This document shows, one piece after another, positions 11,573 through 49,610 of a DNA stretch of 64,000 nt. The notes under the pieces are model-generated. The model was not told the DNA's origin. It worked only from the letters and a program-made list of their open reading frames with translations, and did no database searches. The position numbers and the translations under genes are program-made. Every line of letters starts with the position of its first letter. The first letter of the stretch is position 1. This stretch comes from an uncultured virus (IMG/VR IMGVR_UViG_3300031774_000002) (Duplodnaviria > Heunggongvirae > Uroviricota > Caudoviricetes): IMG/VR virus record IMGVR_UViG_3300031774_000002. One strand, 5' to 3'.

Positions 11573-12904
11573 TTAATATATCTTACAGTGGATTGATGAG
11601 AAGTCGTTTTTCTTGATAGCTGAATAATAACAGCTCTTTAGTACATCTGGATCACTTTCTGATAATATTTCTAGATAGTATGTCAGCCAAGCACCAGCTT
11701 TTAATTGTACTTCAGATGTGGGGAATGGTGATACTTTATCAATTACAAACGACTTCTTCAACAATTTAGGAAGTTTTGTGCTCAAGTATTTCATTGGATC
11801 ATTCATGATTTTAGTCTTGTCAGACTTTATGTCGAACCCATTTTGAGAAGCGAGTTCAGGGAATAATTGCGCAGACACAGAGCCCAATTGGACATCAGCA
11901 CCCTTCTGTCTGCCCTCAAGATAAATGCGGATATCTCCAACCTTTGAGATTGTGCCAGCCTTGTATCCAACACGCAAATTAAATCCACTAATGTTACCTT
12001 GAGTTTCGAAAATAAAATTCTTTTGGAATGGATCAAACAAAACACGCATTGGTGTTAATTCAACATCAGGGATATCAGATGTTGAAACAGTTTCAACTTT
12101 AGCAGTTTTGTTTTTAGATATCTTTTTAAGAGATACACCGATAATTTCTTTGCTTTCATACTTATCAGATAACCAAGCATTAAATTCAAGTAATGATGTT
12201 ATGTCTTTTGTTTGTTTAATTATCTGTGCTTTTGTAATCTTCATAACCCAGATGTCAGCAGGATTCCAGTTATCTTTTAAATCCTTTAGACCAAATCGTT
12301 TTGCTAGATTAAACAAAACATTAGAATCATTCTTTTCTGAGTCTAAGTATATTTTATGTTTTGGAAGATTACCGAAGTTTTTAGAGAATGCAATATATTG
12401 TTGCTCAAAATTATGCATCCATTCTGGACTGAAATCAAACCCCACTGCTGAAGACACTTGCTTCAGTGTTGGCTTCTTACCTTTAAATGCACCTTCAAAG
12501 TATGAGATTGTACCAGCTTCTTGTTCTGCTGTTGTTGGGTTTGCTACTGTCTGTCCTTTCTTTGGTAGACGACCACTACCACGCATTCCACCTGAAGGAA
12601 CAAGAGCAATGTTAACAAGTTTAGATGAAACATATTTTTCACCTTTAGGCATGAAGCCATAACCTGACAAGTCTTTATGTACCGCAAGTTTGGGAATAAG
12701 TTTTTTGTCAGTGATCTTTATCATCAACTGTGTCTTTGCTTTTTTAAAGTCATACTTTGGTTCGATATATACAACATCATCATCAGCATGCTTTTTGAGA
12801 CGAGTTATGAATCTTTTCAATTCAGGATTCATAGCTGTAGGAAGGTGTTCGTATCCGAGCCACAGTTTTGTAGACTCCACTAGATACTCTCCGAATTTAT
12901 ACAT
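11573..12904 (-). CDS. hypothetical protein, PD-(D/E)xK nuclease-like
   Basis: AEQE, WNPADIW, GVSLKK motifs; N-terminus MYKFGEYLVE. Confidence 0.5.
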   Translation of the reverse strand: MYKFGEYLVESTKLWLGYEHLPTAMNPELKRFITRLKKHADDDVVYIEPKYDFKKAKTQLMIKITDKKLIPKLAVHKDLSGYGFMPKGEKYVSSKLVNIALVPSGGMRGSGRLPKKGQTVANPTTAEQEAGTISYFEGAFKGKKPTLKQVSSAVGFDFSPEWMHNFEQQYIAFSKNFGNLPKHKIYLDSEKNDSNVLFNLAKRFGLKDLKDNWNPADIWVMKITKAQIIKQTKDITSLLEFNAWLSDKYESKEIIGVSLKKISKNKTAKVETVSTSDIPDVELTPMRVLFDPFQKNFIFETQGNISGFNLRVGYKAGTISKVGDIRIYLEGRQKGADVQLGSVSAQLFPELASQNGFDIKSDKTKIMNDPMKYLSTKLPKLLKKSFVIDKVSPFPTSEVQLKAGAWLTYYLEILSESDPDVLKSCYYSAIKKNDFSSIHCKIY

Positions 12905-12942
12905 TTGTCAACCTTTGTTTTGTCAAAAAGAATATTATATGT

Positions 12943-12950
12943 TATTTATA
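12943..12950 (-). promoter_or_regulatory. T4-type late promoter TATAAATA
   Basis: exact consensus just upstream of 11573..12904. Confidence 0.8.
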
Positions 12951-12965
12951 ATCCAAAGGCAATAG

Positions 12966-12992
12966 AAAATGAGCATTTTAATGACATGCTCA
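12966..12992 (-). terminator. intrinsic terminator after gp41
   Basis: TGAGCAT-N9-ATGCTCA followed by TTTT on the minus strand. Confidence 0.65.
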
Positions 12993-13001
12993 GGTCATAG
13001 A

Positions 13002-13048
13002 GTTATGTGTGTGATGAGAGAGAGTGAGAGAGAGTTCACACACACAAC
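13002..13048 (-). ncRNA. candidate structured RNA in the gp41 3' UTR (13-bp stem, CU-repeat loop)
   Basis: GUUGUGUGUGUGA / UCACACACAUAAC stem (one G-U) around the loop ACUCUCUCUCACUCUCUCUCA. Confidence 0.5.
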
Positions 13049-13049
13049 A

Positions 13050-14477
13050 TTATACTTTCAATCCTCCGAAGTTTTTACGACCCATCTTTTTGGTTGCCCA
13101 CTTCATTTGATCATCTTCTTTAGCCCTAGACCCAAACTCTGAGTTATCAAATACTGGTCCAGTGTCACCACTATCGGAAAGACCCTCTTGAGCAGTTTGC
13201 TCAACATCATACAACCTCATCTTAGCACGATCAATACCAACCATAAACCTTTTATGTGTACTTGGATCACCATAACGATTTTTTAACTGTTTCACCATTA
13301 TCTGCCCAAGCTCATCTAACTCTTCTGTAACAATCAATGCAGCCATAAAATCAGCAGTTGCTGGTAGACCAAACGATTCAGAAGTATCAGTCAACTCAAT
13401 ATCACTGCTACCATATCCACTACGAGTTGTTTGTGTAGCTGATACAATAGGAACATTTTGTTCAACAGCCAAACCACGCATCTCCTCAGCAATGGCTTTG
13501 ATCAGAGTATATGAGTTAATGTTTGCACCAGCACGAACTCTTGAAGAACTGCATATGTTTAGATAATCAACATAGATGATATCAGGTGTAAATGATTTCT
13601 TTAATTTCATCTCATTCAGTAGATGACGAAAATGACCAACACCAGCAGATGCAGTTGGATATTCTTTTATAATTAATTTGCCAGATGTCTTACCTTTAAC
13701 TCTTTCTATTTTCTTTTCATACATACTTTTAGATAATGCTTTTAAATTATCTAGTGTGACATTAAGTAAGTTGGCATCAATACGCTCAGCAATCTTTTCT
13801 TCAGCCATCTCCATAGTGATGTATAAAACATTCTTGCCATCCATTAGATTAGCCGAAGCCATATGACACATAGCCAAAGACTTACCAGCACCAGTACCTG
13901 CCATGAGTATGTTCAAAGATTTACGAGGCAACCCACCTTGTGTGATCTTGTTCATATAATCAAGGTCAAAGGGAACACGCTCTTCTTTGCGGTGATAAAA
14001 CTCAAACCGTTCTTCAGCATCTTCAACAAAATCATGACCAATGTTAGGATCAAATGAAACGCTTAGAGCATCAGACAACAACTCAGGTATTGCTCCTTTG
14101 TCTTGCTTCTGCCCTTTAGTTTGATCGAGTATACTGATGCTTTCCATTATGGCATTATATACAGCTTTTTCTTGACAGAACTTCTCAGTTGTATTAATTA
14201 ACCACTCAGGATCTTCAGCTTGCTCAACAGATAGTGATGAAATATATTCACCACATTCTTTGAATTCACTATCTGAAAGATTCGTCTGTTGATCAAGTTC
14301 AATAACAAGTGCCTCTTTAGTTGGCACAGTATTAAACTTGTTTATGAAATGATCTATTTGTTCATAGACCGCACGCTCAACACGATCACTGAAGTATTCA
14401 GATTTTAGATAGGGGAGTGTTCTCCTAGCATAATCCTCATCATTCAGTAGGTGTCTCAGTATCAGTTGTTCCTGCAT
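13050..14477 (-). CDS. gp41: replicative helicase
   Basis: DnaB-like: AGTGAGKS, YITMEM, VDYLNI, SATQTTR, SESFGLPATAD; next to uvsX. Confidence 0.95.
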   Translation of the reverse strand: MQEQLILRHLLNDEDYARRTLPYLKSEYFSDRVERAVYEQIDHFINKFNTVPTKEALVIELDQQTNLSDSEFKECGEYISSLSVEQAEDPEWLINTTEKFCQEKAVYNAIMESISILDQTKGQKQDKGAIPELLSDALSVSFDPNIGHDFVEDAEERFEFYHRKEERVPFDLDYMNKITQGGLPRKSLNILMAGTGAGKSLAMCHMASANLMDGKNVLYITMEMAEEKIAERIDANLLNVTLDNLKALSKSMYEKKIERVKGKTSGKLIIKEYPTASAGVGHFRHLLNEMKLKKSFTPDIIYVDYLNICSSSRVRAGANINSYTLIKAIAEEMRGLAVEQNVPIVSATQTTRSGYGSSDIELTDTSESFGLPATADFMAALIVTEELDELGQIMVKQLKNRYGDPSTHKRFMVGIDRAKMRLYDVEQTAQEGLSDSGDTGPVFDNSEFGSRAKEDDQMKWATKKMGRKNFGGLKV

Positions 14478-14754
14478 TATCTACGCTCTCTCTCAATTGT
14501 TGTTCAATAATATCGACAAGTATGTCTCCCATTATACTAATTGCTTCTTCAGAAGTCAAGTCAACATCTGTGGGGTTATCAATAGTGATTGTATTGTAGT
14601 CAAGTACAGCTTGACCATCTTCTTCTCTTTCATGAAAAGATACAGTGTCATACTGATAAGTGAGTCCCTCACAACTACCTTCCAGCACCTTAACAGCCCA
14701 ATGATCTGCATGGAATCCTTCTGGCGATTCTACTAAATCATATTTAACTGACAT
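14440..14754 (-). CDS. small acidic protein at the gp40 position
   Basis: synteny between uvsX and gp41 as for T4 gp40; similarity not verifiable by eye. Confidence 0.45.
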   Translation of the reverse strand: MSVKYDLVESPEGFHADHWAVKVLEGSCEGLTYQYDTVSFHEREEDGQAVLDYNTITIDNPTDVDLTSEEAISIMGDILVDIIEQQLRESVDNAGTTDTETPTE

Positions 14755-16134: not shown

Positions 16135-17229
16135 TTATGCAAAAAAACTTTCTAACGAACTTTTCTTTTCAGACTGCCATCCAACCGACTTCAGAATATA
16201 CTTTAGTGGTTCAAGGAATGCTTTCTGAAACTGCAATTCGCGGTCTATGTAGGAGTTTAACTCAAATTCTTTGGGCAGTGTTGTCATAACACTGATGATA
16301 TTTTGCCTTGTTGGATTAGGCAATTTCAAATAACAAAACTTAATCTTCTCACCATCTTTGATGGACTCATATTTTTTGGTGAGCTTCATATCACGAAGCA
16401 TATGATTATATACCAACCCACCACGAACATGAATTGGTGTTCCTTTAGGAATTGTCAGCTCATCACCCAATACTGTATACTTATTCAAATCAGAAATTGA
16501 ACGAGGAAAGGCAATGTCCTCGAAGCTGAAAGTATCAAACTTTTCTCTGAATTCAGAAATATAACTCTGCACTTCATCTTCACCTTTTGTCATAATAATC
16601 TTGATGGCTTCTTTCAAAGCATCACGACAGACTGCTGGTGTTGATGACTTAACAGTCTCAATACCCATCATCTTCAATTGCGGTTCAGCATAACGCACAC
16701 CCTCATTATCATACACATTCATCATGTAGCGTTTCTTAGCAGTCCAGATAGCTTTATCTGCAATCGCTTCACGCTTCATAAACATCTTTTGGGAATATGC
16801 GTTTGTTAGGTGTGCCAGCTCTTCATAACTTTTATCAATAAAAGGTTCCAACTTCTCAGCTGCAACTTTGTCCAAGAAATTGACGACTTTGACAGCATCA
16901 CTTCCCTCTTCAAAGCATTTGCGTACAAGTTTGTCGAGATTGACATAAATTGAATCTGTGTCCGACGCAATAACATAATCAACTTCGTCTGTATCCAAGA
17001 TCTTGTTGAGATATTCATTTACTCTCCTTTCAATCCATCTAATTGCTAACTGACCAGACAATGTAATTGCCTCTGCCTTTCGTACATCAAAGAATCGAAA
17101 GTATTTATTACCGACTGCACCATAAGCTGAGTTGAGCTGAACCTTTTTTGCAAGTTGAAGATTCTTGTACTTGCTTATATCTTTAACAAGTTGCTTCTTC
17201 CGTTCAAGAAGTTCAGCTCTTTCAGTCAT
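16135..17229 (-). CDS. gp43: family B DNA polymerase, C-terminal subunit (gp43B)
   Basis: KVQLNSAYG (motif B), ASDTDS (motif C), KKRY, C-terminal SSLESFF. Confidence 0.93.
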   Translation of the reverse strand: MTERAELLERKKQLVKDISKYKNLQLAKKVQLNSAYGAVGNKYFRFFDVRKAEAITLSGQLAIRWIERRVNEYLNKILDTDEVDYVIASDTDSIYVNLDKLVRKCFEEGSDAVKVVNFLDKVAAEKLEPFIDKSYEELAHLTNAYSQKMFMKREAIADKAIWTAKKRYMMNVYDNEGVRYAEPQLKMMGIETVKSSTPAVCRDALKEAIKIIMTKGEDEVQSYISEFREKFDTFSFEDIAFPRSISDLNKYTVLGDELTIPKGTPIHVRGGLVYNHMLRDMKLTKKYESIKDGEKIKFCYLKLPNPTRQNIISVMTTLPKEFELNSYIDRELQFQKAFLEPLKYILKSVGWQSEKKSSLESFFA

Positions 17230-17501
17230 TATACTACAATCCCGCTTGTTGCTTGAATATATGCTTTCTCAACATCTTCATTGGTTTCAGTCATGAATAC
17301 TGTTCCACCAGTATAGAAAGAAACTGAGTCAACATTTGCTTTACCTGTCGCACAAACGCCATGAGCAAATCCCATACCCTGCTCGCCATGGACAAGCATG
17401 CGTGGATCTTTGATAACAATACTAGCATCTGTTTCTTCTTCAAACTTACCAACAAACTCTCCAGTGAGAGTTACTAATGAAACTACAGTTCCTTTCTTCA
17501 T
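17229..17501 (-). CDS. small Sm-like beta protein between the two polymerase halves
   Basis: 90 aa, VVSLVTLTGEFVGK...IVIKDP pattern; overlaps both neighbours. Confidence 0.6.
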   Translation of the reverse strand: MKKGTVVSLVTLTGEFVGKFEEETDASIVIKDPRMLVHGEQGMGFAHGVCATGKANVDSVSFYTGGTVFMTETNEDVEKAYIQATSGIVV

Positions 17502-18952
17502 AATTCTAATAACCTTTTGTTTATCTGTTCAAGTTCAGTCTGTGCTTCAAGCATTTTTTGCTTATAGCCCACACGCTCATTATACATCTTCTCCATCATC
17601 TCAGGCAAGAAACCTTGCTTGTCTTTTCTGAAGTATCTACCATTACCAGCCATAGCGAAACCATCTGGTGGTGTTTGTATATCACGATCAATTATATCCT
17701 CAACCGTGACATTTGTCAACCACTCATCTTCAACAAATGTTTCGGGTGATATATTGTACTGCATGATAAGGTGAGGATATAGTGAGTTCAAATCAAAACT
17801 CATAACCCAATCATGCATACCAACATGCGGATCTTTCACATAAGCACCAGCAAACTGAGAGTTTTTGATTGATTCGCTTTTTGGTGGTATGACAATATTC
17901 TTTGACATGAGATAATTATGTATAAGAACATCCCACATTGTAACTTGAGTGAAGACATCGTTGTAGTTCACTTTGGCATCATAAGCAATCGCCAACGCAC
18001 CTTCAATCAGCTTCATCTTATCTTCAAGCCTATCAACAAGCTCAACATCCTTTATGTTATAGTCAATAAACTTTTTGTAATCTAGTTTGTAGAGTTGATT
18101 CAAGTTATCATACTCTGAATAATCAATCTTCTTTTCGCCCAACTCAACTTCACCTATATGATCAAGACGATATGATTCCTGCTGTGAATATGTAAACTTC
18201 TTATACAGCTGGAGATAATCAAGCAAAGCAATCCCAGTCAACTCATAGATTGTCTCTTCACGATTAAAGTTCCGAATGGTACGCTCTTTGATCCATCCAT
18301 AAGGTGATAAACGCTTAACAAACTTTTCATCAAATAATCTGCCAATACGGTTTACAAGATATGGAATATCAAAACCCTCAATGTTCCACCCAGTAACAAT
18401 ATCAGGATCAAGTCTTTGCCACAAAGCAACAAAGGCTGATAATAATTTCTTCTCATCTCGACAGTTTATGTAGCTGACATTATCCTTTCCGCTGTCATCA
18501 TACTCACCAACACCCATTACATAATATTGACGCTTACCGTTGCGTGTTAAGGATAGTGTGATTGCTGTAACTTCTTGATCAGCTTTTTCTGGAGCAGGGA
18601 ATCCATCATCAGAGGCAACCTCAATATCGATATTAGCAATACGAATAACATCTGTGTCATACTCGCTACCAAATCGCTCATTGACACAAACATGTGCCCA
18701 TTTAGTTGAGCCATAGATCTTGAAGTTCGACACACCCTCATATTTTTGTACGAAATAACCAGCTTCACGAATATCACCAAGAGCGACTTCTTCAACATAG
18801 TCGCCCTCTAATGTTTTCCATTTAGTTGGTTTTGGTGACGGAACATACATTTTAGGATTGTAATCGATCTTATGATCAAATCGTCTGCCGTCTTGATATC
18901 CACGGATGTTTACTTTGTTCCCACGGACATGAGCATGAGTATAAAAATACAT
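17498..18952 (-). CDS. gp43: family B DNA polymerase, N-terminal subunit (gp43A)
   Basis: ExoI DIE, ExoII GWNIEGFD, ExoIII YNIKD, motif A SFDLNSLYP; ends in the fingers helix. Confidence 0.93.
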   Translation of the reverse strand: MYFYTHAHVRGNKVNIRGYQDGRRFDHKIDYNPKMYVPSPKPTKWKTLEGDYVEEVALGDIREAGYFVQKYEGVSNFKIYGSTKWAHVCVNERFGSEYDTDVIRIANIDIEVASDDGFPAPEKADQEVTAITLSLTRNGKRQYYVMGVGEYDDSGKDNVSYINCRDEKKLLSAFVALWQRLDPDIVTGWNIEGFDIPYLVNRIGRLFDEKFVKRLSPYGWIKERTIRNFNREETIYELTGIALLDYLQLYKKFTYSQQESYRLDHIGEVELGEKKIDYSEYDNLNQLYKLDYKKFIDYNIKDVELVDRLEDKMKLIEGALAIAYDAKVNYNDVFTQVTMWDVLIHNYLMSKNIVIPPKSESIKNSQFAGAYVKDPHVGMHDWVMSFDLNSLYPHLIMQYNISPETFVEDEWLTNVTVEDIIDRDIQTPPDGFAMAGNGRYFRKDKQGFLPEMMEKMYNERVGYKQKMLEAQTELEQINKRLLEL

Positions 18953-19387
18953 TTAGTCTTCACCAACCTCTTCAATTTCAAGTTCACCGTGCATTACAAC
19001 ATTTGATTCTTCAGAATCATATCCTTCCTCTTCAAGAAAGAAAAAACTATCTTCATCATATCCTTCTTGAAGAGCTTCCTTCTCATTATCGCTGAATTCA
19101 CCAACAAAGTCAATGTCAACTGAAATGCCATCCCATGTAGATTGAAACTCATGCTCTTCAAAATCATATGGCTCAAACTCATCGTCATCTTCAGCATACA
19201 TTGCAGCTTCAAGAGCATCGACTTCATCTTTATCTTGTGGCGTAACATTAACAGTCCCATTTCGCCATAGTGTACTTATAATTATTTGTTGTTTTTGGTC
19301 ATCACAATGAGTAAATGTCTCAGACTCTACGAAACATTTTTTGTATGCTGGCGAAACAGCATATGTTTTACCGATTTTTATTTCCAT
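18953..19387 (-). CDS. acidic hypothetical protein (paralog of 26781..27206)
   Basis: 144 aa in operon context. Confidence 0.65.
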   Translation of the reverse strand: MEIKIGKTYAVSPAYKKCFVESETFTHCDDQKQQIIISTLWRNGTVNVTPQDKDEVDALEAAMYAEDDDEFEPYDFEEHEFQSTWDGISVDIDFVGEFSDNEKEALQEGYDEDSFFFLEEEGYDSEESNVVMHGELEIEEVGED

Positions 19388-19388
19388 C

Positions 19389-19976
19389 TCACTCTCCTAT
19401 AATCATATTATAAATGTCATTCCAATTATTGGCTCTTGTTCCATTATACTCTTTATTGTATCTATGGTCAACCAAAATACTTTTTAGACCAAACCTTGTT
19501 CCTAACTCAGCATTGGCAGGCTTATCTTCAATCCACCAACACTCACTGTCTCTGTACTTTAACAAAGCATCATCTTTATCAGCACCACACTCAAGGCATG
19601 TCAAAACTTCAAATACACCTCTACCAAAAACGCTGTCCAGATTTCTCTGTCTCAGAGCAATAGCTTTATCATCATCCGACATAGAAGTGATACAGTGGAA
19701 TACATAACCATGCTCTTCATGTAACTTGCGAACATACTTCACCGCATCTCTTAATGGTGGAATATCTTCCATCCATGCACTTTCATTGAAGTGACGAACC
19801 AATGGCTTTGTCTCTTCACGACTAACACCATATCGCTTGTGTACCTTATAAAGATCTCTATATCCATCAACAGTTTTGAAACCTTTTTTATCCATCCAAG
19901 AACTGAAGGAATGCTCCCAATCAAGAAGCACTCCATCACAGTCAGTTAAAATTACTTTATCAAAAGTAGCATACAT
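19389..19976 (-). CDS. HAD-family phosphatase / 5'(3')-nucleotidase-like
   Basis: DCDGVL (DxD), WIEDK. Confidence 0.8.
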   Translation of the reverse strand: MYATFDKVILTDCDGVLLDWEHSFSSWMDKKGFKTVDGYRDLYKVHKRYGVSREETKPLVRHFNESAWMEDIPPLRDAVKYVRKLHEEHGYVFHCITSMSDDDKAIALRQRNLDSVFGRGVFEVLTCLECGADKDDALLKYRDSECWWIEDKPANAELGTRFGLKSILVDHRYNKEYNGTRANNWNDIYNMIIGE

Positions 19977-21703: not shown

Positions 21704-21916
21704 TTAGACCTGACTCGCTTCAGTACGGTATGCGAGATCAAGAGTCCTGACATTTTCCTCGTGCATCTGGAGCAACTCAGCATGGGTGTATATATCATAC
21801 CCAGTGAACAAGATTTCCTTCCCCTCGCACGCTCCAGAGGTGTCTCCGAAGTCTTTAGTGGTTAAGGCATCAACATCAAGGCTTAAAAGATTAGCAAGCT
21901 CAGTGGTGGTCAACAT
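21704..21916 (-). CDS. small hypothetical (putative early) protein
   Basis: 70 aa, SD GAGAGGAGAG, own promoter. Confidence 0.65.
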   Translation of the reverse strand: MLTTTELANLLSLDVDALTTKDFGDTSGACEGKEILFTGYDIYTHAELLQMHEENVRTLDLAYRTEASQV

Positions 21917-21946
21917 AGGTCTCTCCTCTCATCAATTTATAAGAGA

Positions 21947-21975
21947 ATTCTACCCTATATTTGATCTCTGGACAA
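21947..21975 (-). promoter_or_regulatory. putative early promoter
   Basis: TTGTCC-N17-TAGAAT; same class at 33562 and 35920. Confidence 0.7.
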
Positions 21976-32357: not shown

Positions 32358-33524
32358 TTAAGCAGCAATTTCTTCAGGCTCTTCAGCCATGTCATCAACT
32401 GTGCCAGCATCAGCATCAATCTTTGAATAGAGATCAAGGAATGATGTTTTGGTGTCTTCATCAAAACGATTAATACACATATTAATCGCAGTCATCCGAC
32501 CACCTTTATCACCAAAGATCTTATATGCTTTGGCAATATGAACAAGACGACGAGTCGAGATAACTTCATCAATACCGCCATCATAAAAAGTCTTGCGGAT
32601 AATGTCAGCCCAATCAACAAGTTTGGTTACAAACTCAGAGTCATCTAGACCGAGACTAGCGAACACTTCATTCAAGATTCGTTTCTCAGTGCTCACTGGA
32701 GGATACTCCTGCTCGCAAGTAATAGGGAATCTTTCAAGGAATGCTTCATTCAGCACATTAGTACCAATAAAGCGACCATCATCAGATCCTTTACCTTTGG
32801 TGTTAGCAGTAGCGATAACATTAAACCCAACAGCAGGATTAATATACTCACCAGTCTTTTTGATAAAATATCCTTTACCCTCAAGGATAGACTGAAGACA
32901 CATAATCTTTGCTGGATTACCCAGATCGATCTCATCCAGAAGTAATAAAGCACCACGCTCCATTGCCTTGATAACTGGACCTTTGAAGAAACGAGTGTCA
33001 CCGTCAACAAGACGGAAACCACCAATCAGGTCATCTTCATCAGTCTCAATTGTAAAGTTTACACGGATGACTTCACGCTTCAACTGAGCACATGCTTGTT
33101 CAACCGAGAATGTTTTACCATTACCAGACATACCAGTAATGAAAGATGGATAGAACATACCAGACTTAATGACTTGCTTCAGTGTCGAGAAATTACCAAA
33201 GGGAACAAACAAAGGATCTTTGGCAGGGACAAGATTTTCAGTGAAGCCATCAGTGACAACATTCATCTCAGCAACAAGTTTGTTAGGCTCAAGATTAGTC
33301 ACAGGAGCTGGAGCAGACGGTGCGAGAGGAGCAGGAGAGCTCACTGCAGTCGTCTTTGGAGCAGTTGAAGGCAGGTTATACAAACCACGATCAACACGGA
33401 GAGCAGTCGCGAAATACTTACTCGGCACTTTCACGCCAAGCTCACGAGCAACTCTTTTGGTTTCAAGACTAGGAACAGGATTATTCCCATACTTTTCTTT
33501 CAGGATAGAATATAGATCAGTCAT
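32358..33524 (-). CDS. CobS/MoxR-like AAA+ ATPase
   Basis: GMSGNGKT, ETDEDDLIGG, LLDEID, ATANTKG, AFLERF. Confidence 0.9.
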   Translation of the reverse strand: MTDLYSILKEKYGNNPVPSLETKRVARELGVKVPSKYFATALRVDRGLYNLPSTAPKTTAVSSPAPLAPSAPAPVTNLEPNKLVAEMNVVTDGFTENLVPAKDPLFVPFGNFSTLKQVIKSGMFYPSFITGMSGNGKTFSVEQACAQLKREVIRVNFTIETDEDDLIGGFRLVDGDTRFFKGPVIKAMERGALLLLDEIDLGNPAKIMCLQSILEGKGYFIKKTGEYINPAVGFNVIATANTKGKGSDDGRFIGTNVLNEAFLERFPITCEQEYPPVSTEKRILNEVFASLGLDDSEFVTKLVDWADIIRKTFYDGGIDEVISTRRLVHIAKAYKIFGDKGGRMTAINMCINRFDEDTKTSFLDLYSKIDADAGTVDDMAEEPEEIAA

Positions 33525-33561
33525 ATAGGTCTCTCTCATTTATTAATCAATTTCAAATACA

Positions 33562-33590
33562 ATTCTAGCACAAAAACAACATAAAGACAA
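33562..33590 (-). promoter_or_regulatory. putative early promoter
   Basis: TTGTCT-N17-TAGAAT. Confidence 0.7.
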
Positions 33591-33649: not shown

Positions 33650-35890
33650 TTAAGCAATCGACTCTATCAAGTCACTCAACATTTTACGCGACTCTTTTCT
33701 AGAACCATTCGCTTTCTTAAAGGCAGTGCGGATCTTTGCTTTTGTTGCATCACTACCGACCGCAATCGAAGTATTGCTCACTTCAAGATTTTTACCACCA
33801 TGAATTAAGAACAGTCGATCATAACCAAAGTTGTCTTCAAGCATAACAAACTTTTCTTTTTTGGCTCTCATATGATATGATTTAGCATCATACCAGTCCA
33901 TACTGTTAGGAGCATTACGAGTCCATTTGTTTATACTACTCTCCATAATCCGATAACCAATAACAGTAGAACCAGTCCTTTCACGATACATATCTAAAAG
34001 GACTTTGGTGATCGCATCACCATATCCAGTCACACGATAGCGTTTCTTGGTCACAGGATCATTTACATACAACACTGCAGTGCCACTTCTATTATGATAA
34101 TAATTAGTTTGTGAACCCCATTCTTTGTCAGGGTTAGTGAATTCCATAGGATGACTATCACCATCAGTCAAGAATATTGTATTCACAATATCAAGACGAT
34201 TTTTCTTTTGGAAATCATCATGCACTTTCATTGCAGCCATTATAGTCTCATCAAGAGGAGTACCGCTCAAAGCCAACCCTCTAGGAAAACGAAACCTGTT
34301 CATTTTCTTTTGAGCTTCCCAGCTGTATTTGTTGCGACGAGAGACACGGATATCATAATATCTCCCGACACAAAGAACGAATTTCATCATGTCATTGAAA
34401 GTTTGACGATTCATATTGTTATTGAAAAACTCTAATAATCTGAAACAATGATGATAACGCAAAACACTATCTCGTTTTTGTTGGGTCGCACTTTCAGAGT
34501 CAGAACCATACCAATTATTTGTAAAAGCATAAACACGGTATGGTATCTTCACCTGACGGCAGAACAAAACTAAATTCAACATTTGATCAATCGTGGCTTT
34601 AAGATCTTCCATCATTGAGCCAGACCAATCAACATACATGATTATACCATGACTTTTACCATCTGGTGTCACTGTTACTTTGCGGAAAATATCATCATTG
34701 TAACGATAGCTGTTCATCTTGACAGGATCAATCACACCAGTCTTTGCCACAGTTTGTCTAGAGTAAGCTGATGCACTTTTCTTCATCTCAAACTCTTTTG
34801 CCATGTAATTTACGCTTCTCTTATTATTATTCATGAAGTCATTAACATATCCTTCACCCAGATCATTCATCGCTTGATCAAACGAATCAGGCTCTTGAAC
34901 TTTGAAATTTTCTAGAATTTCTTTTGCTGATATAATCAAGTCATTAATCGGTGCGTCATTCAAGAACACATTAGTGATTTTTATATCATCATCATCACCA
35001 TGCTCAGCAGCAATATTGTTTCTTAATGACTGATCAGTTTTTGATTCAAGATCTTCTTCAGATGATTCACCACCTGTCTGTCCTGTCTGGTTATCATCAG
35101 AATCATCTTCATCATCTTTCCAGAAGTCATCTTGATCTTCATCAGAACTCCAGAAGTCACCATCATCTTCATCTTCATCTTCATCATCAGGAGTGCTACC
35201 AGATGAATCACCTGATTCACTTTCATCTTCATCATCAGAATCATCAAAATCATAAGAGCCACTGCCATCAGTATCTTCTTGACTCTCATCTTTTGCCATT
35301 TCATCCATAGCTTTCTGCTTGTCAGCATTTTCTTCTTCTTGCTTTTGTTTACAGAAATCATACAAACGCTCAGTCAGGTCAACAACCTGATCCCATGTTT
35401 CAAGAGTTTCAATCTCATCAATCCATGGTTGCTCATCTGCCTCAATGCGAACACCAGCAGAACGACCGCATTTAAAATAAGTGTTGATACGATCAATAAG
35501 ACCATAATTGTTTATTTGTTTGATGTCACCACCAAAGAAACCATCAGCAAGCATGCGTCTGTATGAAGAAACAAATGAAGTTCGCAGACCTTGATATCGT
35601 TTTTGAATTAGCTTTTCAATCCTAGCATCTTCAATAACATTTAAAAAAGATCTGAAAGTTTGACCACGCTTATGAGTAGACTCATGCCATCCCTCTTCTG
35701 GAGTATACAAAGCATGACCAACCTCATGACCAACCAAATGATCATAAGTGTCAGACCTCATATCATCCCACATTGGTAGAGTAAGGATGCGGTCACGAAC
35801 ATTAAATGAAGCAGTCTTTGCTTGCTTATGAGAAACAGTAATGTTTTCAGTAGCAAGTAGACGAGCCAATGTATCTTTAGAAGTATTCAT
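33650..35890 (-). CDS. CobT-like protein: HExxH domain, acidic linker, vWA domain
   Basis: HEVGH, NVIEDARIE, D/E-rich linker, MIDAS DWSGS...GTP...TDG. Confidence 0.85.
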   Translation of the reverse strand: MNTSKDTLARLLATENITVSHKQAKTASFNVRDRILTLPMWDDMRSDTYDHLVGHEVGHALYTPEEGWHESTHKRGQTFRSFLNVIEDARIEKLIQKRYQGLRTSFVSSYRRMLADGFFGGDIKQINNYGLIDRINTYFKCGRSAGVRIEADEQPWIDEIETLETWDQVVDLTERLYDFCKQKQEEENADKQKAMDEMAKDESQEDTDGSGSYDFDDSDDEDESESGDSSGSTPDDEDEDEDDGDFWSSDEDQDDFWKDDEDDSDDNQTGQTGGESSEEDLESKTDQSLRNNIAAEHGDDDDIKITNVFLNDAPINDLIISAKEILENFKVQEPDSFDQAMNDLGEGYVNDFMNNNKRSVNYMAKEFEMKKSASAYSRQTVAKTGVIDPVKMNSYRYNDDIFRKVTVTPDGKSHGIIMYVDWSGSMMEDLKATIDQMLNLVLFCRQVKIPYRVYAFTNNWYGSDSESATQQKRDSVLRYHHCFRLLEFFNNNMNRQTFNDMMKFVLCVGRYYDIRVSRRNKYSWEAQKKMNRFRFPRGLALSGTPLDETIMAAMKVHDDFQKKNRLDIVNTIFLTDGDSHPMEFTNPDKEWGSQTNYYHNRSGTAVLYVNDPVTKKRYRVTGYGDAITKVLLDMYRERTGSTVIGYRIMESSINKWTRNAPNSMDWYDAKSYHMRAKKEKFVMLEDNFGYDRLFLIHGGKNLEVSNTSIAVGSDATKAKIRTAFKKANGSRKESRKMLSDLIESIA

Positions 35891-35919
35891 ATGATAGTCT
35901 CTCAACAAAATAGACGCCC

Positions 35920-35948
35920 ATTCTACCATATCAGGAGACCTGAGACAA
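35920..35948 (-). promoter_or_regulatory. putative early promoter
   Basis: TTGTCT-N17-TAGAAT. Confidence 0.7.
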
Positions 35949-37260: not shown

Positions 37261-38645
37261 GAAAAGAATCCTTCTAATGATGACTTTGTCACAACAGCTT
37301 CTGGATGATATTGCGATAACATTCCTTCACCGCCTTTCTGTTTCAGATAATCATACCACTCATCTTCAGCCCACATATTTGGCGAAACACCATTCCAAAA
37401 TTCTTTCCACAACTTGTGGTTCTTATTGAGTCTGCGATCATCAACATATTGTCTACGCAGTTTTTCATATTCCCAAGAACCAACCTCAAGCATTTTTTCA
37501 CGGAAGTAGCATACAAGAGATATGCGTTCCATTTCTTCAATAGTGGTTCCAGCAGGTGGTTTCAGTTCAGTGTTACCATGAATGCCACCATGATTATTGA
37601 TCAACAAAAGATCTCCTGGACGGATATTGATACCTACACGAAACTCTGGAAGGACAAGATAACCACCTTCCCAATTCTTTTCTTTAGCAACAACAGTAAG
37701 GTTTGAAAATCCTTCATTCAAATCACCAGCATCTCTGTGAGCTGCAGTTCTGAAGTTTTTATTTACAGTAATCGTAGTGAACGGTGTATCTTCACCAGCA
37801 ACACGAAAGCGTGGATCTAGCTTGCTTGCAGCTTCGTTTTGAATACCATAACGAATAGGTAAATGCTCCTTAAATTTGTCAGCTAATTGACGCATGAAAG
37901 GATAGCACTTCTCATAGACAGGATAGTTGTTCTCTGTATACGCAGTTGCTCGACCGTATGGAATACGAGGATATCGATCAAAGAATCCAGCAATACCTGA
38001 CAACACCATGTTAGCATATGTTGTCTCAGAGATATAGTTCTTTTGAGTTGCCTTTGCGTCTTTCTGAGCATCCTCTGCTGACATACCTTGCCATTCAGCA
38101 ACCTTGTCATTGAAGAATGATTCGTAATTATAACCACTATCAGTGATCTTAGATCTGATCCAAACTATACCACGAGATTCACCTGCTGTAATTGAAGCAT
38201 GTTTTGCTCTGATTCTTTCTACTGGATCAGTGTCATCTTCAAACAGAGAAACTTCACGCTCAGCAAAGTGCTTCATAATATCAAGCTGTTCTTCAGTTAC
38301 CCAATCACGACCGCCTTGCTTTGCTCCTTTTGGACCAGCAGCAAGACCACGATTTTGTGTAGGTAATGCAGCACCTAATAATCCTTCATAAGCACCGTGC
38401 TGTTGTTCTTCAGTAAAAACATTTTTGCGAAACTTAAAGATAATGTTATCTTCATTATTCTCACCACCAAACCCAGCAGGAGCATAGAAGTCAGTATCTT
38501 CTTCACAAATAAAATCCCAGTCAGTATCTTCCATATATTGACCGAGTTTGTGTTCACAATCATCCCAAAACTTGGCTGTAATGATTCTGACATTGTTTAC
38601 ATTATCTACCTTAACATCATACTTTTCGTTTATCACACCAATCAT
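37257..38645 (-). CDS. TET/JBP-like 2OG-Fe(II) dioxygenase
   Basis: FTTITVNKNFRTAAHRDAGD (HxD), GDLLL...IHGNT (distal H), RISLVCYFRE (2OG-binding R). Confidence 0.8.
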   Translation of the reverse strand: MIGVINEKYDVKVDNVNNVRIITAKFWDDCEHKLGQYMEDTDWDFICEEDTDFYAPAGFGGENNEDNIIFKFRKNVFTEEQQHGAYEGLLGAALPTQNRGLAAGPKGAKQGGRDWVTEEQLDIMKHFAEREVSLFEDDTDPVERIRAKHASITAGESRGIVWIRSKITDSGYNYESFFNDKVAEWQGMSAEDAQKDAKATQKNYISETTYANMVLSGIAGFFDRYPRIPYGRATAYTENNYPVYEKCYPFMRQLADKFKEHLPIRYGIQNEAASKLDPRFRVAGEDTPFTTITVNKNFRTAAHRDAGDLNEGFSNLTVVAKEKNWEGGYLVLPEFRVGINIRPGDLLLINNHGGIHGNTELKPPAGTTIEEMERISLVCYFREKMLEVGSWEYEKLRRQYVDDRRLNKNHKLWKEFWNGVSPNMWAEDEWYDYLKQKGGEGMLSQYHPEAVVTKSSLEGFFS

Positions 38646-39652: not shown

Positions 39653-40308
39653 TAAAAGAATTCCTCTAGAGTGTTTGGCTCATCACCTATTAATTTATCA
39701 CGCATCCAAAACTCTCCTACAGAAGAAATAGCTTCTTCTACAGTAGCAGTCTTTTTCTTACCAAAGCCATGAGACTCAAGCGATTCATCAAACAATTGTT
39801 TGATCACCTTTGGATCTTTAGGCAAAGCCAGATGCGGGACATTAATTGCTGTTGCCCTAAATGTGCACTGCTCCCTGATAGAAGGAAACAGTGGTTGATC
39901 AGAACGCAACGACCCAGTTGGATCAACAGCCCAAAATATCAAACCATTTCTTTTATGCCAAGTTATAGAAGATGGAGTGCAAGATATTTTCAAACGACTC
40001 ATGCCATTATTAAAAGCATCACTCATTACTCTTTCCCAGATAGCTGTAGCATATCCCTTTCCTTCATGACCTTGCCTAGTTACAATCTCATATAGATTAA
40101 TATATCTCGATCTTTGACTATAAGTAGCAAACACAAATGCAACCATTTCGCCATCAACCTCTAAGGCAAATGGCTTATTATCTTTTTCATAGTTTTTAAA
40201 ACGAAACCACAAACTGTGTGATGAATTGAGGAACTTTGTATTTTTTCCTTCAGGGGAGTTCTCAATGACTTTCTCAATCATCTCTTGTGAACATCTTACT
40301 ATGCGCAT
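39652..40308 (-). CDS. GNAT acetyltransferase
   Basis: LYEIVTRQGHEGKGYA (acetyl-CoA motif A). Confidence 0.75.
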   Translation of the reverse strand: MRIVRCSQEMIEKVIENSPEGKNTKFLNSSHSLWFRFKNYEKDNKPFALEVDGEMVAFVFATYSQRSRYINLYEIVTRQGHEGKGYATAIWERVMSDAFNNGMSRLKISCTPSSITWHKRNGLIFWAVDPTGSLRSDQPLFPSIREQCTFRATAINVPHLALPKDPKVIKQLFDESLESHGFGKKKTATVEEAISSVGEFWMRDKLIGDEPNTLEEFF

Positions 40309-40991
40309 TGTAAGTCTCTCACTAATGCACCACCACGCAATGGAGAAGATTTCTCTAGCTTTCCATTGTATGTGTATGTTACATACATGTCTGTTCTTTG
40401 TTGATTTGTAATTGCACTTCTTTTTAGAATATCTTTTGTTGATGCGAATACAATACCATTATTTCGCTCACTATACCATAGTGGTCTTGCTTCATTTCTA
40501 AATCCAGTTAGACTCTTATCTTTTTTGATACGACAGACAGCCATACTTGATGGGTAAAAATCATTCAATGGATCATTACCAGCCTCATATGATTTCAATA
40601 TCAATTCACTGTCATTAGCTGTTTCAGTGTTATATTTCCACTTCTCTTTATCTTCTTGTGATATAACACCATTGTGAACAATACTTTGATCACCATTAGA
40701 GAAAGGTTGATTGTATCGAAGATCAGATGTTGAATAGCGAATATGACCAATAAGGTAGATACCACCATCCTCATTTATCATACTCTGAATTGGATATTTT
40801 GCGAGGAACTCATCACAAGGGATGCCCTCTTTTATCGTATATATCTTAGAATCTTTGACATATGATACACCAGTCGCATGTTTCCCTCTTATCATAGATT
40901 CGCGGAAAATACGCTCTACCAGTTTAACATTCTCAATACTACCACGACTGACAGAGGATCTCTCTAACCAAACGCCTATCACACCACACAT
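40299..40991 (-). CDS. stand-alone class II (Ntn) glutamine amidotransferase
   Basis: MCGVIG (Cys2 nucleophile), RG..ATG, GHIRYST, NQPF, HNG, DSE, RPLW. Confidence 0.85.
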   Translation of the reverse strand: MCGVIGVWLERSSVSRGSIENVKLVERIFRESMIRGKHATGVSYVKDSKIYTIKEGIPCDEFLAKYPIQSMINEDGGIYLIGHIRYSTSDLRYNQPFSNGDQSIVHNGVISQEDKEKWKYNTETANDSELILKSYEAGNDPLNDFYPSSMAVCRIKKDKSLTGFRNEARPLWYSERNNGIVFASTKDILKRSAITNQQRTDMYVTYTYNGKLEKSSPLRGGALVRDLQCA

Positions 40992-48035: not shown

Positions 48036-48063
48036 AGCTATCTCCTATAGTTAAATAAAAGAT

Positions 48064-48116
48064 GCGTTCCTTCGACACAATTGTCTACTTCCGTTCACTT
48101 ATAGTGAATGAACGAT
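48064..48116 (-). promoter_or_regulatory. glutamine riboswitch (glnA motif, glutamine-I class)
   Basis: AUCGUUC-A-[UUCACU AUA AGUGAA]-CGGAAGUA-[GACA AUUG UGUC]-GAAG-GAACGC: P1/P2/P3 three-way junction with the conserved GGAAGUA and GAAG segments. Confidence 0.85.
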
Positions 48117-48242: not shown

Positions 48243-49610
48243 TTATACCAAGTTAGCAACTTTAACGCGACGGTAGTAAGAGTTTTTACTAGCAAAGTTA
48301 ACAGCACTTGCAGCAAATGGGTTCGCAACCATGCCGTAGCGAGTTTTGAAACCGATTTTTGGTTGGAAGGTATTCTCACCAACCGCACGAACCATTTGTA
48401 GAGGCACATATGGGCAGTAGAATAAACCAGCATCAAAGGCACTATCACCTTTGTAACCAATAGTGAAGTAGTTGTTAGTTGTATCAGAGAAGTATGGATC
48501 AATGTATACTTTGATACGACCATTTAATACACCAGCGAAAGTGTTACCAGTGTCATCTACTTGCAAGTTGTTGCTAAGTGCAGGAGCATAGTCAAGAACA
48601 CCAGCCATTTGAAGAGCAGAAGCTACATCAGATGAAGTGATCAAAACATTACCTTTACCGCGACGAGTTGCTTTACCGATTGCGTTAGCTTCACGCTCGA
48701 TTTGGAACATTAAGCCTTTGAACTTCTCAACAGACCAGCGACCGTTTGAGTCAGTGTCTAGATCGAAAACACCATTATTAGTTACAAGACCTTGTGCACC
48801 GATAGTAGCAGTGTAGTTGATAGTACGAACAACTTCACGGTTAATTTCAGCAAGGATCTCAGTAGATAAGATGTTGCTTAACTCTTGCTCAGCATCTAAA
48901 CCATGGACAGCTTTAAGATCTTGAGCTAATTCCATAGTGTATTCTGCTTTTAACGCACGAGATACAGCTGTTACACTGATTTTCTCGATAGAGAACGCCA
49001 TTTCAGCAAAAGAGTTACCAGCTGCATCGCCAAGAGCTTCAGCAGTAGCAGTTGACATACCAGTGTGAACAGTATAGCCAGAACCAGAAGCAGCTTCAGT
49101 TGCATCTTGACCAGCTTGAGTAGTACCAGCAGCACCATCGATTACACCACCGAAGTTTGCTGTGTTAGCAGTCTCACTACCGATTGCAGAGAATGAAGTG
49201 TCAGCTTCGTTAAATAAGGCTTCAGTACCAGCTTGAGTATTGAGGCGTGATTTCATCGCAAAGATAAGACCAGTTGGACCAGTCATTGGCTGTACGCCAC
49301 AAATATCATAAGCGATAAGGTTAGGCATTGAGCGACGCACTAAGCTGATTAGGACAGGATCGAAAGTATCGACACTACCGTCACCAGCAGTAGAGCTAGA
49401 TGCACCCATTGCGTTTACTGGTGCTGCTTCGCCTAAAAGCGAAGGAGCGTGAGCACCGCCAGACTGAGCAGATTGCTCAGCTGCAGCTCGTTCTTGGTTT
49501 TCTAAAAGAGTTGCAACAGTTGAACGCTTGTGAGCGTCAGTGATCGAAGGAAGATCAGCGTGCTCAAGAACAGGTTGCCACTTCTTTTGTAGACTATCAG
49601 ATTGAATCAT
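48243..49610 (-). CDS. gp23: major capsid protein
   Basis: DICGVQPMTGPTGLIFAM, SRALKAEYTMELAQDLKAVHGLDAE, FQPKIGFKTRYG. Confidence 0.98.
   Translation of the reverse strand: MIQSDSLQKKWQPVLEHADLPSITDAHKRSTVATLLENQERAAAEQSAQSGGAHAPSLLGEAAPVNAMGASSSTAGDGSVDTFDPVLISLVRRSMPNLIAYDICGVQPMTGPTGLIFAMKSRLNTQAGTEALFNEADTSFSAIGSETANTANFGGVIDGAAGTTQAGQDATEAASGSGYTVHTGMSTATAEALGDAAGNSFAEMAFSIEKISVTAVSRALKAEYTMELAQDLKAVHGLDAEQELSNILSTEILAEINREVVRTINYTATIGAQGLVTNNGVFDLDTDSNGRWSVEKFKGLMFQIEREANAIGKATRRGKGNVLITSSDVASALQMAGVLDYAPALSNNLQVDDTGNTFAGVLNGRIKVYIDPYFSDTTNNYFTIGYKGDSAFDAGLFYCPYVPLQMVRAVGENTFQPKIGFKTRYGMVANPFAASAVNFASKNSYYRRVKVANLV

Follow-up and report, generated by a model that had tools for sequence, protein, structure and literature searches.

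A conserved CU-loop hairpin downstream of gp41 in marine T4-like phages: a candidate anti-ribosome-binding-site RNA

What is understood of temporal control in T4-like phages concerns mostly promoters and a small number of proteins, and it is not known how the abundant marine members of the group turn their early genes off. In T4 itself, the endoribonuclease RegB and the repressor RegA are proteins that select early messenger RNAs (mRNAs) through their ribosome-binding regions and end early synthesis. In Staphylococcus aureus, a report on the icaR mRNA describes a pyrimidine motif in its 3'UTR (3' untranslated region) that pairs with that mRNA's own Shine-Dalgarno (SD) region, obstructs the initiation complex and makes a substrate for RNase III (PMC3868564). 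The Cuckoo/CcsR (alpha-r14) small RNAs (sRNAs) of Alphaproteobacteria are described as carrying a fixed pyrimidine loop motif on freely varying stems (PMC4615179). In Helicobacter pylori, a C/U-rich loop of the sRNA RepG pairs with a purine repeat in an mRNA leader, according to the report on it (PMC8295292), and the T4 gene 41 mRNA, from the uvsX-40-41 unit, is presented in one study as a post-transcriptional control point connected with rho alleles and GoF (PMC12152347). Here we describe the CU-loop hairpin, an element that directly follows the gp41 helicase gene in a stretch of 64,000 nucleotides (nt) from an uncultured virus (IMG/VR record IMGVR_UViG_3300031774_000002), which as a whole is called the window below.

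The source genome belongs to an uncultured marine T4-like myophage with a G+C content of 37% and nearly all of its genes on the minus strand; its contig (G000) and the window together make 111,136 nt. The sequence evidence supports the element as a real, conserved and strand-specific RNA structure. Its most probable role, to which we give a probability of about one half, is that of an RNA directed against ribosome-binding sites (RBS), which would act in cis, in trans or both by pairing with GA-repeat leaders and limiting the translation of early genes. The features on which this reading rests are the following.

13002-13048, minus strand: CU-loop hairpin, with a 13-base-pair (bp) stem (one G-U pair) and a 21-nt loop, identified by folding and by homologous hairpins.
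13048-13036 and 13014-13002, minus strand: 5' arm and 3' arm of the hairpin, 13 nt each.
13015-13035, minus strand: loop ACUCUCUCUCACUCUCUCUCA, that is (ACUCUCUCUC)x2+A, also written (CUCUCUCA)x2.
12966-12992, minus strand: second, terminator-like hairpin UGAGCAU(9-nt loop)AUGCUCA plus UUUU, with its arms in 12992-12970 and the UUUU at 12969-12966.
13050-14477, minus strand: gp41 replicative helicase gene (phrog_19, DnaB-like helicase, 3.6e-127), with its stop TAA at 13052-13050.
14486-14495, minus strand: gp41 leader UGAGAGAGAG, at 8 nt from the AUG and able to form 10 Watson-Crick pairs with either of the loop blocks.
12943-12950, minus strand: match to TATAAATA, which we take to be the T4-type late-promoter motif, ahead of the next gene (11573-12904).

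The loop ACUCUCUCUCACUCUCUCUCA consists of two CUCUCUCUCA blocks, each of them complementary to UGAGAGAGAG. An earlier note, made from the letters of the window alone, had described the stem, the doubled loop with its final A, the minus strand and the place right after the gp41 stop, and all of these are found as it gave them. Folding against shuffled controls agrees: the 96-nt minus-strand RNA has a minimum free energy of -27.2 kcal/mol, versus -11.3 +/- 2.4 for shuffled sequences (z = -6.59; 0 of 200 shuffles are as stable), and the plus strand of the hairpin region folds less stably (z = -3.04). The same note called what follows a terminator, which holds only in part; a hairpin with UUUU is present, but with 7 bp, three G-C pairs, a 9-nt loop and U4 it is weak for this purpose, and the terminator scan of the window did not call it (12966-12992) because its loop exceeds 8 nt. 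The sequence of this second hairpin, GACCUGAGYAUGUC, is kept throughout the gp41 clade, and the order of hairpin, terminator and TATAAATA recurs in relatives. No Rfam 15 family overlaps 12966-13048, even at E up to 10, and at gathering scores the sole match in the whole window is a glutamine riboswitch, the CU-loop hairpin matching no family; the element belongs to an RNA family that is not yet catalogued. The riboswitch aptamer (RF01739, 59.6 bits, E = 1.3e-10) lies at 48061-48116 on the minus strand, in the gap that separates the major capsid gene (48243-49610) from its neighbor, and the paper on the cultured OM43 phage Melnitz reports glutamine riboswitches in related phages.

The conservation of the hairpin was followed through relatives. 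Scanning viral contigs with the protein as guide yielded 80 loci of gp41, 19 of which were inspected 3' of the gene. The four nearest relatives (gp41 81-86% identical) carry the hairpin in the same place, with another stem and the same loop core, one of them being cut by the contig end; directly after gp41 it was found in none of the remaining 15 loci, one of which is without downstream sequence. A search pattern made of the loop core and the conserved GACCTGAG returned 23 loci, namely 21 gp41-3' elements and two chance matches in unrelated G+C-rich DNA. The core CUCUCACUCUC is kept in 21/21 of these homologues, a count that is partly circular because the pattern itself includes the core, and it varies slightly in lineages found independently of the pattern. 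All 17 distinct gp41-3' variants form the same hairpin when each is folded singly, and when stem positions are counted outward from the loop, 11/11 show three or four canonical pair types (16 sequences). Alignments of the hairpins made with MAFFT (A2, A3) were out of structural register and were rejected in favor of a covariance model built from a three-sequence seed, which gave 39 matches in 100 sources, or 30 distinct rows. In the alignment of these rows 98.2% of the cells pair and all 11 pairs show compensatory changes, the covariation score being 0.840 against 0.203 +/- 0.022 in shuffled alignments (0/500 reach it) and at most 0.147 with slid partners. What the earlier note had seen in one genome is met again downstream of gp41 in relatives, with a fixed loop core and a compensated stem.

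The alignment also holds 14 G-U or U-G cells, and since these would be A-C mismatches on the opposite strand, the structure belongs to the sense RNA. The same cells, together with the better folding of the minus strand, speak against a role at the DNA level, in which the element would serve as a cruciform or single-stranded hairpin in replication, recombination or clamp loading, or the GAGAGAGA boxes would be repressor operators. Such a role would fit an element that adjoins replication genes and boxes that lie downstream of early promoters, and GA/TC mirror repeats can adopt unusual DNA structures. The GA motif, however, keeps a fixed distance of 4-8 nt to the AUG and a variable one of 14-36 nt to the -10 box, as expected of an RBS rather than an operator, and we consider a DNA-level role very improbable.

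Sequence comparison supports a constraint on the loop and not on the stem, which turns over quickly. Between window 13002-13048 and locus L084 (1985-2027), five stem pairs differ while the 45-nt gp41 leader and the downstream terminator are nearly identical; this unusually fast paired turnover may come from template-switch repair of a DNA palindrome, or from recombination. A loop that stays while stems change bears on a plainer explanation, that of a 3'-end stabilizer or terminator module that ends early transcription and whose loop is low-complexity sequence kept by descent or slippage. The hairpin does always end an early or replication unit, usually just before TATAAATA, and in loci of the G016 type it is itself a 12-16 bp GC-rich stem with a U-run. 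But a terminator or a protective hairpin would carry a loop of 19-25 nt only at some cost; all the same, the loop has been preserved where five stem pairs have changed, and its core persists between phages at about 40-59% protein identity, so we hold such a module to be improbable as the whole explanation.

The length of the loop also bears on a signal at the level of transcription. Rho prefers UC-rich, G-poor RNA, and rut sites are C-rich, G-poor, unstructured stretches of about 60-80 nt. The CU repeat could accordingly be read as a Rho loading site, or as another such signal at the boundary of early and late genes, and levels of the T4 gene 41 mRNA are indeed sensitive to rho alleles and GoF (PMC12152347). 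The single-stranded CU tract measures 19-25 nt in every member, however, far below the length of a rut site; an intrinsic terminator already follows the hairpin or is the hairpin itself, and the complementary leaders would be left unexplained. We see very little room for this reading.

The leaders are the second part of the argument. Besides that of gp41, the following sites in the window are complementary to the loop.

33530-33539, minus strand: AUGAGAGAGA, leader of the CobS-like gene, 5 nt before its start at 33524, with the promoter TTGTCT-17-TAGAAT at 33562-33590.
35898-35904, minus strand: UGAGAGA leader ahead of 35890, where the phrog_459 'peptidase' gene likely starts, with the promoter TTGTCT-17-TAGAAT at 35920-35948.
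21926-21934, minus strand: UGAUGAGAG(GAGAGA) leader before the small open reading frame (ORF) starting at 21916, with the promoter TTGTCC-17-TAGAAT at 21947-21975.
19388-19398, minus strand: GGAGAGUGAGA in the start region of a 144-amino-acid (aa) gene that begins at 19387, able to form 11 bp, one of them G-U, with the loop centre.
40315-40323, minus strand: AGUGAGAGA ahead of a start at 40308, matching the loop centre as its complement over 9 nt.

The four complements named in the earlier note (before gp41, the CobS-like gene, 21916 and 35890) are all present where it placed them, and its remark that most other genes use ordinary SD sites agrees with the GG-containing SD sites found in most of them. 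For 35890 the start itself needed a decision: the longer ORF begins at 35929, but this first in-frame ATG falls within the promoter spacer (35920-35948), so 35890, which suits the promoter better, is likely the true start. The sense-strand 8-mer GAGAGAGA occurs five times in the 111 kilobases (kb); four copies precede starts (gp41, cobS, 70212 and 70498) and the fifth lies inside a coding region. The leaders of cobS, 35890, 21916 and 70498 stand behind TTGnnn-17-TAGAAT, and those of 70212 and gp41 behind TTGnnn-17-TATAAT. The class of GAGAGA-leader early genes that the earlier note proposed is borne out by its position behind sigma70-like promoters. Five related contigs (G001-G005) repeat this arrangement: of their 17 sense-strand GAGAGAGA 8-mers, 15 stand 4-8 nt ahead of a start, for the most part within a promoter-leader cassette (TTGnnn-17-TATAAT) that recurs, and the two exceptions are one orthologous site. 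In three more distant gp41 relatives, where no hairpin was seen, no promoter-led GA leader was seen either; in ten cultured Kyanoviridae genomes only 3 of the 54 listed GAGAGAGA sites resemble start regions, and the cobS leaders of P-SSM2, AG-345-O18, S-8S56 and S-PRM1, in which no hairpin was found, lack the GA repeat. Taken together, the sequences support the view that start regions with a GA-repeat leader form a genuine class, one that follows sigma70-like, early promoters.

In the leader of gp41, UGAGAGAGA is kept before the AUG in 20/20 relatives that have both the gp41-3' hairpin and a full gp41. The leader sits within the 3' end of an overlapping 104-aa ORF (14440-14754), in which the motif reads as L/M-R-E codons; outside the clade the C-terminal end of that protein is free to vary, which places the constraint on the RNA. 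Two side observations belong to the leaders. Near-identical promoter and leader cassettes are repeated on early genes, for example TATAATAGTGTAAGTGATTCG...GA-repeat...ATG in G007, and such sites lie on the sense strand of G007 (L173/L174) at 2050, 3182, 34352 and 34736, in G002 at 18463, 33636 and 34426, and in G001 at 92077 and 96990; they recall the mobile promoter-stem-loop cassettes of T4-type phages. UCUCUU follows two of the TAGAAT boxes (those of 70498 and 21916) and was considered as an internal anti-RBS sequence; it was rejected, since no more than about 6 nt separate it from the -10 box, which probably puts it upstream of the transcription start.

How well do loop and leaders match? 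Of the three occurrences of the 9-mer CTCTCTCTC in the 111,136 nt, two make up part of the loop and the third, in complementary form, belongs to the leader of gp41. Among 125 start regions that of gp41 pairs best with the loop, at -19.5 kcal/mol versus -7.2 kcal/mol with the canonical anti-SD 12-mer used for comparison. When start regions are ordered by the difference between loop and anti-SD pairing, GA leaders take all of the first six places; five of the six stand behind promoter-like sites, and the six pair with the anti-SD at only -4.5 to -8.4 kcal/mol. Of 11 sense-strand sites with loop-complementary 8-mers, five fall within -22 to -3 of starts, a space that makes up 2.2% of the genome (p = 2e-6). 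Similar rankings are found elsewhere: gp41 is also the first-ranked partner in G011 (of 16) and G012 (of 23); in G016 the first two of 67 places go to the pair of promoter-led genes in the unit that the hairpin closes; in G013 (of 22) and G006 (of 74) the first partner lies 1.2-1.4 kb upstream of the hairpin; and in Melnitz rank 1 of 216 is a promoter-led leader 6.8 kb upstream.

Some variant loops have variant partners. The loop of G007 (..CACUUUC..) has a perfect 12-nt partner, GAAAGUGAGAGA, a length reached by 5/1000 shuffles; that of G016 has an 11-nt partner, GAGAGUGAGAG (10/1000 shuffles reach 11 nt); and the CC-containing loop of L008 has a 9-nt partner, GAGAGGAGU, with GG opposite the CC. 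The G016 partner is the leader of the orthologue of the 35890 peptidase gene and a perfect complement of the loop centre, while the cobS leader of G016 is AGAGAGAG, and both genes stand behind TTGACT promoters. These cases give hints of co-variation between loop and leader in G007, G016 and L008. In addition, the A that ends each CU block matches the U before the GA run in 5/6 leaders here and in all gp41 leaders of relatives. A matrix of own-loop against other-loop pairing showed an own-loop advantage in G007 and G013 only.

These matches also bear on a different view of the loop, as a platform for a protein. This could be a translational repressor or a nuclease of the phage, or else a pyrimidine-tract binder of the host, for example ribosomal protein S1. 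In that case the GA leaders would be independent weak or special RBS, and their complementarity to the loop a by-product of homopurine and homopyrimidine sequence. A fixed loop over a varying stem is as typical of protein-recognized hairpins as of antisense seeds, the specificity over shuffled CU-rich loops is weak in most genomes, and the conserved second hairpin (GACCUGAGYAUGUC) is not explained by pairing with leaders. We nevertheless find a protein platform unlikely, because the block-end A has its matching U, because variant loops meet matching variant leaders in G007, G016 and L008, and because the best partner is found in the hairpin's own unit; no candidate protein was identified here.

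If loop and leader do pair, the outcome might still be something other than repression, such as protection of early mRNAs from decay that depends on the 5' end, or a tether between 3' and 5' ends that stabilizes or activates genes with a weak RBS. The complementarity that speaks for an anti-RBS role speaks equally for this one, and the poor pairing of GA leaders with the anti-SD may mean that they need help and not a brake. The duplex, however, would cover the region that the 30S subunit must occupy, and sRNAs that target the RBS and cover the 30S site usually inhibit initiation. As no leader structure was found that pairing would open, we give non-repressive pairing little credence.

A number of observations weigh against the anti-RBS reading and have to be set beside the evidence for it. 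Pairing with shuffled controls, by which the earlier note proposed to judge the match, gave a divided answer: the first rank of gp41 and the enrichment at starts stand on one side, while on the other, shuffled loops of this genome reach a longest match of 10 nt in 108/1000 trials and hit at least as many start regions (matches of at least 8 nt) in 97/2000. For the longest match, shuffles do as well in 114 of 1000 trials in G001, 231 in G002, 308 in G006, 141 in G012, 79 in G013 and 134 in G017; G011 stands at 25/1000, and only G007, G016 and G011 fall below 75. For the count of start regions the corresponding figures, per 2000, are 183 in G001, 217 in G006 and 509 in G013, with 18 in G002 and 22 in G007. 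Because start regions are purine-rich, CU-rich 21-mers generally find partners, and in this genome the specificity of this loop beyond that of any CU-rich loop for purine-rich RBS is marginal. The rank of gp41 is only 3 of 69 in G002 and 6 of 170 in G001. In a genome-wide duplex scan that allowed G-U pairs and bulges, the gp41 leader came about 13th, below purine-rich coding repeats at 78-79 kb, and raw duplex energy over all positions was for that reason rejected as a discriminator. The repeats themselves are tandem GGAGAGAAA-type sense repeats at 77.9-79.1 kb, within a large gene at 77255-82366 (coordinates of window plus contig), and are the best loop partners that are not RBS.

The same caution extends to the wider comparison. 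The hairpin ends early clusters, where GA-rich leaders are common, so its linkage to partners in its own unit is partly expected; the hairpin-bearing genomes are related, and their co-occurrence of loop and leaders therefore counts as few independent events. The start region at 19387 was dropped as a conserved target, its 11-bp match being kept in L104-L106 and absent in the hairpin-bearing L107. The covariation alignment is fitted to the structure of the model, which makes the folding of the 17 variants, each taken singly, the independent check, and template-switch repair of DNA quasi-palindromes could equally yield paired changes. No promoter of its own was found before the hairpin within the window; a TATAAT overlapping the gp41 stop was considered and rejected, as it is without a usable -35 and is not conserved in relatives. 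Finally, contigs from RNA libraries (four runs) cover parts of 12700-14700 that lie outside 12968-13560.

With these points weighed, the anti-RBS RNA may be pictured as follows; the accumulation of the RNA, its pairing with leaders and repression as the outcome are what we infer. A stem of any sequence would hold open a pyrimidine loop of two CUCUCUC(A) blocks, and this loop would pair with the GA-repeat ribosome-binding leaders (UGAGAGAGA and its variants) of promoter-proximal early genes. The first partner would be the leader of the hairpin's own transcription unit, here that of gp41, and other early mRNAs would come next, among them those of the CobS-like gene, of the gene at 35890 and of the ORF at 21916. 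Pairing would span roughly -6 to -16 relative to the AUG, and by this it is proposed to keep the 30S subunit off and to limit or shut the translation of GA-leader genes. Genes with canonical GG-containing SD sites would escape: since the loop is a good match for GA leaders and the anti-SD a poor one, early genes could be singled out by the RNA, and those with an ordinary SD left untouched. In cis, the 3' end of the full mRNA would close onto its 5' end, leaving translation possible only while the transcript is nascent; in trans, the effector would be a stable fragment from the 3' end or, in the case of Melnitz, a small RNA transcribed on its own.

Two further features of the window lie at or before the gp41 start.

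14531-14559, minus strand: sigma70-like promoter TTGACT-17-TATAAT (11/12), inside the upstream ORF.
14440-14754, minus strand: conserved 104-aa ORF overlapping the gp41 start by 38 nt.

A transcript from the promoter-like site would be expected to carry the gp41 leader and the hairpin on one mRNA, with gp41 as the sole gene between them. The site is intact in L001, L002 and L015 and degraded in L003 and L004. Relatives show the overlap of the 104-aa ORF with gp41 too, as does Melnitz, in which the annotation of the ORF reads 'DNA primase'.

A broader scenario, which we put forward tentatively and think possible rather than probable, is a temporal switch made of RNA only. Transcripts of the host RNA polymerase would bear a non-canonical GA-repeat RBS to which the ribosome binds weakly and the CU-loop RNA strongly, and this RNA, made at the 3' end of early or replication operons or from its own promoter in Melnitz, would accumulate and close early translation. 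In cis the switch would act as a timer, in which only nascent transcripts are translated and the output of helicase is limited here. The switch would be an RNA counterpart of RegB and RegA of T4, and loop and leaders would co-evolve as a matched pair across phage lineages.

The feedback on the helicase that the earlier note proposed has a narrower scope. It would be possible in the clade with the hairpin after gp41, but three relatives whose gp41 is 69-74% identical, the lineage of G016 and G017, and Melnitz all have the hairpin apart from gp41, and the gp41 leader, read in three such relatives, is ordinary there. Such feedback, if it occurs, would be a feature of the gp41-hairpin clade only.

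The other positions show how far the element extends. Beside the 21 loci with the hairpin after gp41, hairpins apart from gp41 were found by reading the contexts of GAGAGAGA sites in relatives and by a generic loop scan. In G006, G007 and L008 the hairpin lies 2-5 kb 3' of gp41, closes a cluster of small early genes, and is followed each time by a second, G+C-rich hairpin. A second context comprises eight loci, in which a 12-16 bp G+C-rich stem with the loop GCCUCUCUCACUCUCUCUCAAU runs directly into a U-tract and then TATAAATA; in G016 and G017 it stands after a peptidase-cobS-DUF3310-like unit. At L194, L203, L209, L229, L237 and L248, the TATAAATA 3' of the hairpin is followed at once by AGAGAGAGAAA or AGAGUG.., so that the 5' end of a late transcript, or read-through RNA, would again complement the loop. 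G016 is T4-like, with proteins 31-78%, mostly 40-59%, identical to those of the source phage, and its major capsid protein (58.7%) is no closer than those of cultured pelagiphages and cyanophages (61-64%). The covariance model finds exactly one match each in G001, G006 and G016 and none in the relative G009, which is 98% complete. Both search tools miss some members, as model R1 missed the element of G007 and the pattern CTCTCACTCTC with one mismatch missed that of Melnitz.

In Melnitz, the element is found at the following place.

38546-38599, Melnitz genome: CU-loop hairpin element with a 15-bp stem and the loop ACCUCUCUCUCGACUUUCUCUCUCA.

It begins 7 nt after TTGACT-17-TATGAT, and a strong terminator (stem plus U8) comes next, so that it looks like a free-standing small-RNA gene. 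A hypothetical coding sequence, MelnitzEXVC044M_66 (MZ577097.1, 38547-38726; locus L382, 5048-5227), spans the hairpin, the terminator and the next promoter, and is probably not a protein gene; the words 'small RNA', 'sRNA' and 'noncoding' occur nowhere in the text of the Melnitz paper. Among the GAGAGAGA contexts listed for the other nine cultured phages, with six P-SSM2 sites without a locus left unread, the element was not seen, which is not proof of its absence there. Over the whole comparison, the loop and GA leaders are found together in two lineages as distant as different genera.

The remaining setting of the locus can be given briefly. No gp41 more than 65% identical to that of the window was found among cultured phages. 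By PHROGs, the minus-strand row of genes includes a split DNA polymerase, UvsX and gp41 (13050-14477). The split gp43 polymerase occupies 16135-18952 on the minus strand, with an N-terminal ORF at 17498-18952 and a C-terminal ORF at 16135-17229; a 90-aa ORF (17229-17501, phrog_527) separates the halves, and L107 has the identical arrangement of three ORFs. Bases 1-819 of the window fall outside contig G000 and are without any N.

Searches of the literature on anti-SD, UTR and phage small RNAs, on noncoding RNA of T4-like cyanophages, and on CUCUCU with Shine-Dalgarno, subscription journals not being covered, returned no description of the element. If the anti-RBS reading is true, a conserved hairpin matched to a special class of RBS leaders would be a new layer of phage gene regulation, a new RNA family in phages of ecologically dominant marine bacteria and a natural case of orthogonal RBS and anti-RBS pairing. 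As the cultured Melnitz carries the element too, annotated there as a hypothetical protein, the idea lends itself to a direct test at the bench.

Compared with the described systems, the element shares a part with each of them. As in icaR, a 3' loop of the gp41 mRNA is complementary over 10 nt to the leader of the same mRNA, the best of 125 start regions; unlike the UCCCCUG of icaR, it carries a CU dinucleotide repeat twice in a hairpin loop, matches the leaders of several genes, and is a phage-encoded, conserved family known here from sequence. As in the Cuckoo/CcsR sRNAs, the loop motif is kept while the stem covaries (98.2% of cells paired, 0/500 shuffles). Cuckoo RNAs, however, present CCUCCUCCC in two to four adjacent hairpins and are bacterial sRNA genes, whereas the phage element is one hairpin with (CUCUCUCA)x2, a loop other than that of Cuckoo, set at the 3' end of an operon and without an Rfam match. 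The pairing loop of RepG is the loop of its terminator, and likewise the G016-type CU loop sits in the terminator hairpin itself; the RepG target is a G-repeat in one bacterial leader, while the phage target would be a class of GA-repeat RBS. With RegB and RegA the likeness is one of purpose, a functional analogy only, since the proposed effector here is an RNA and theirs are proteins. The effect on T4 gene 41 concerns RNA ends upstream of that gene and a mutant of an LSm-like protein, and the available text of its study describes no 3' hairpin or anti-RBS loop (PMC12152347). Judged by their descriptions, which set it apart in motif, copy number and context, the CU-loop hairpin belongs to none of icaR, Cuckoo/CcsR, RepG or RegB/RegA.

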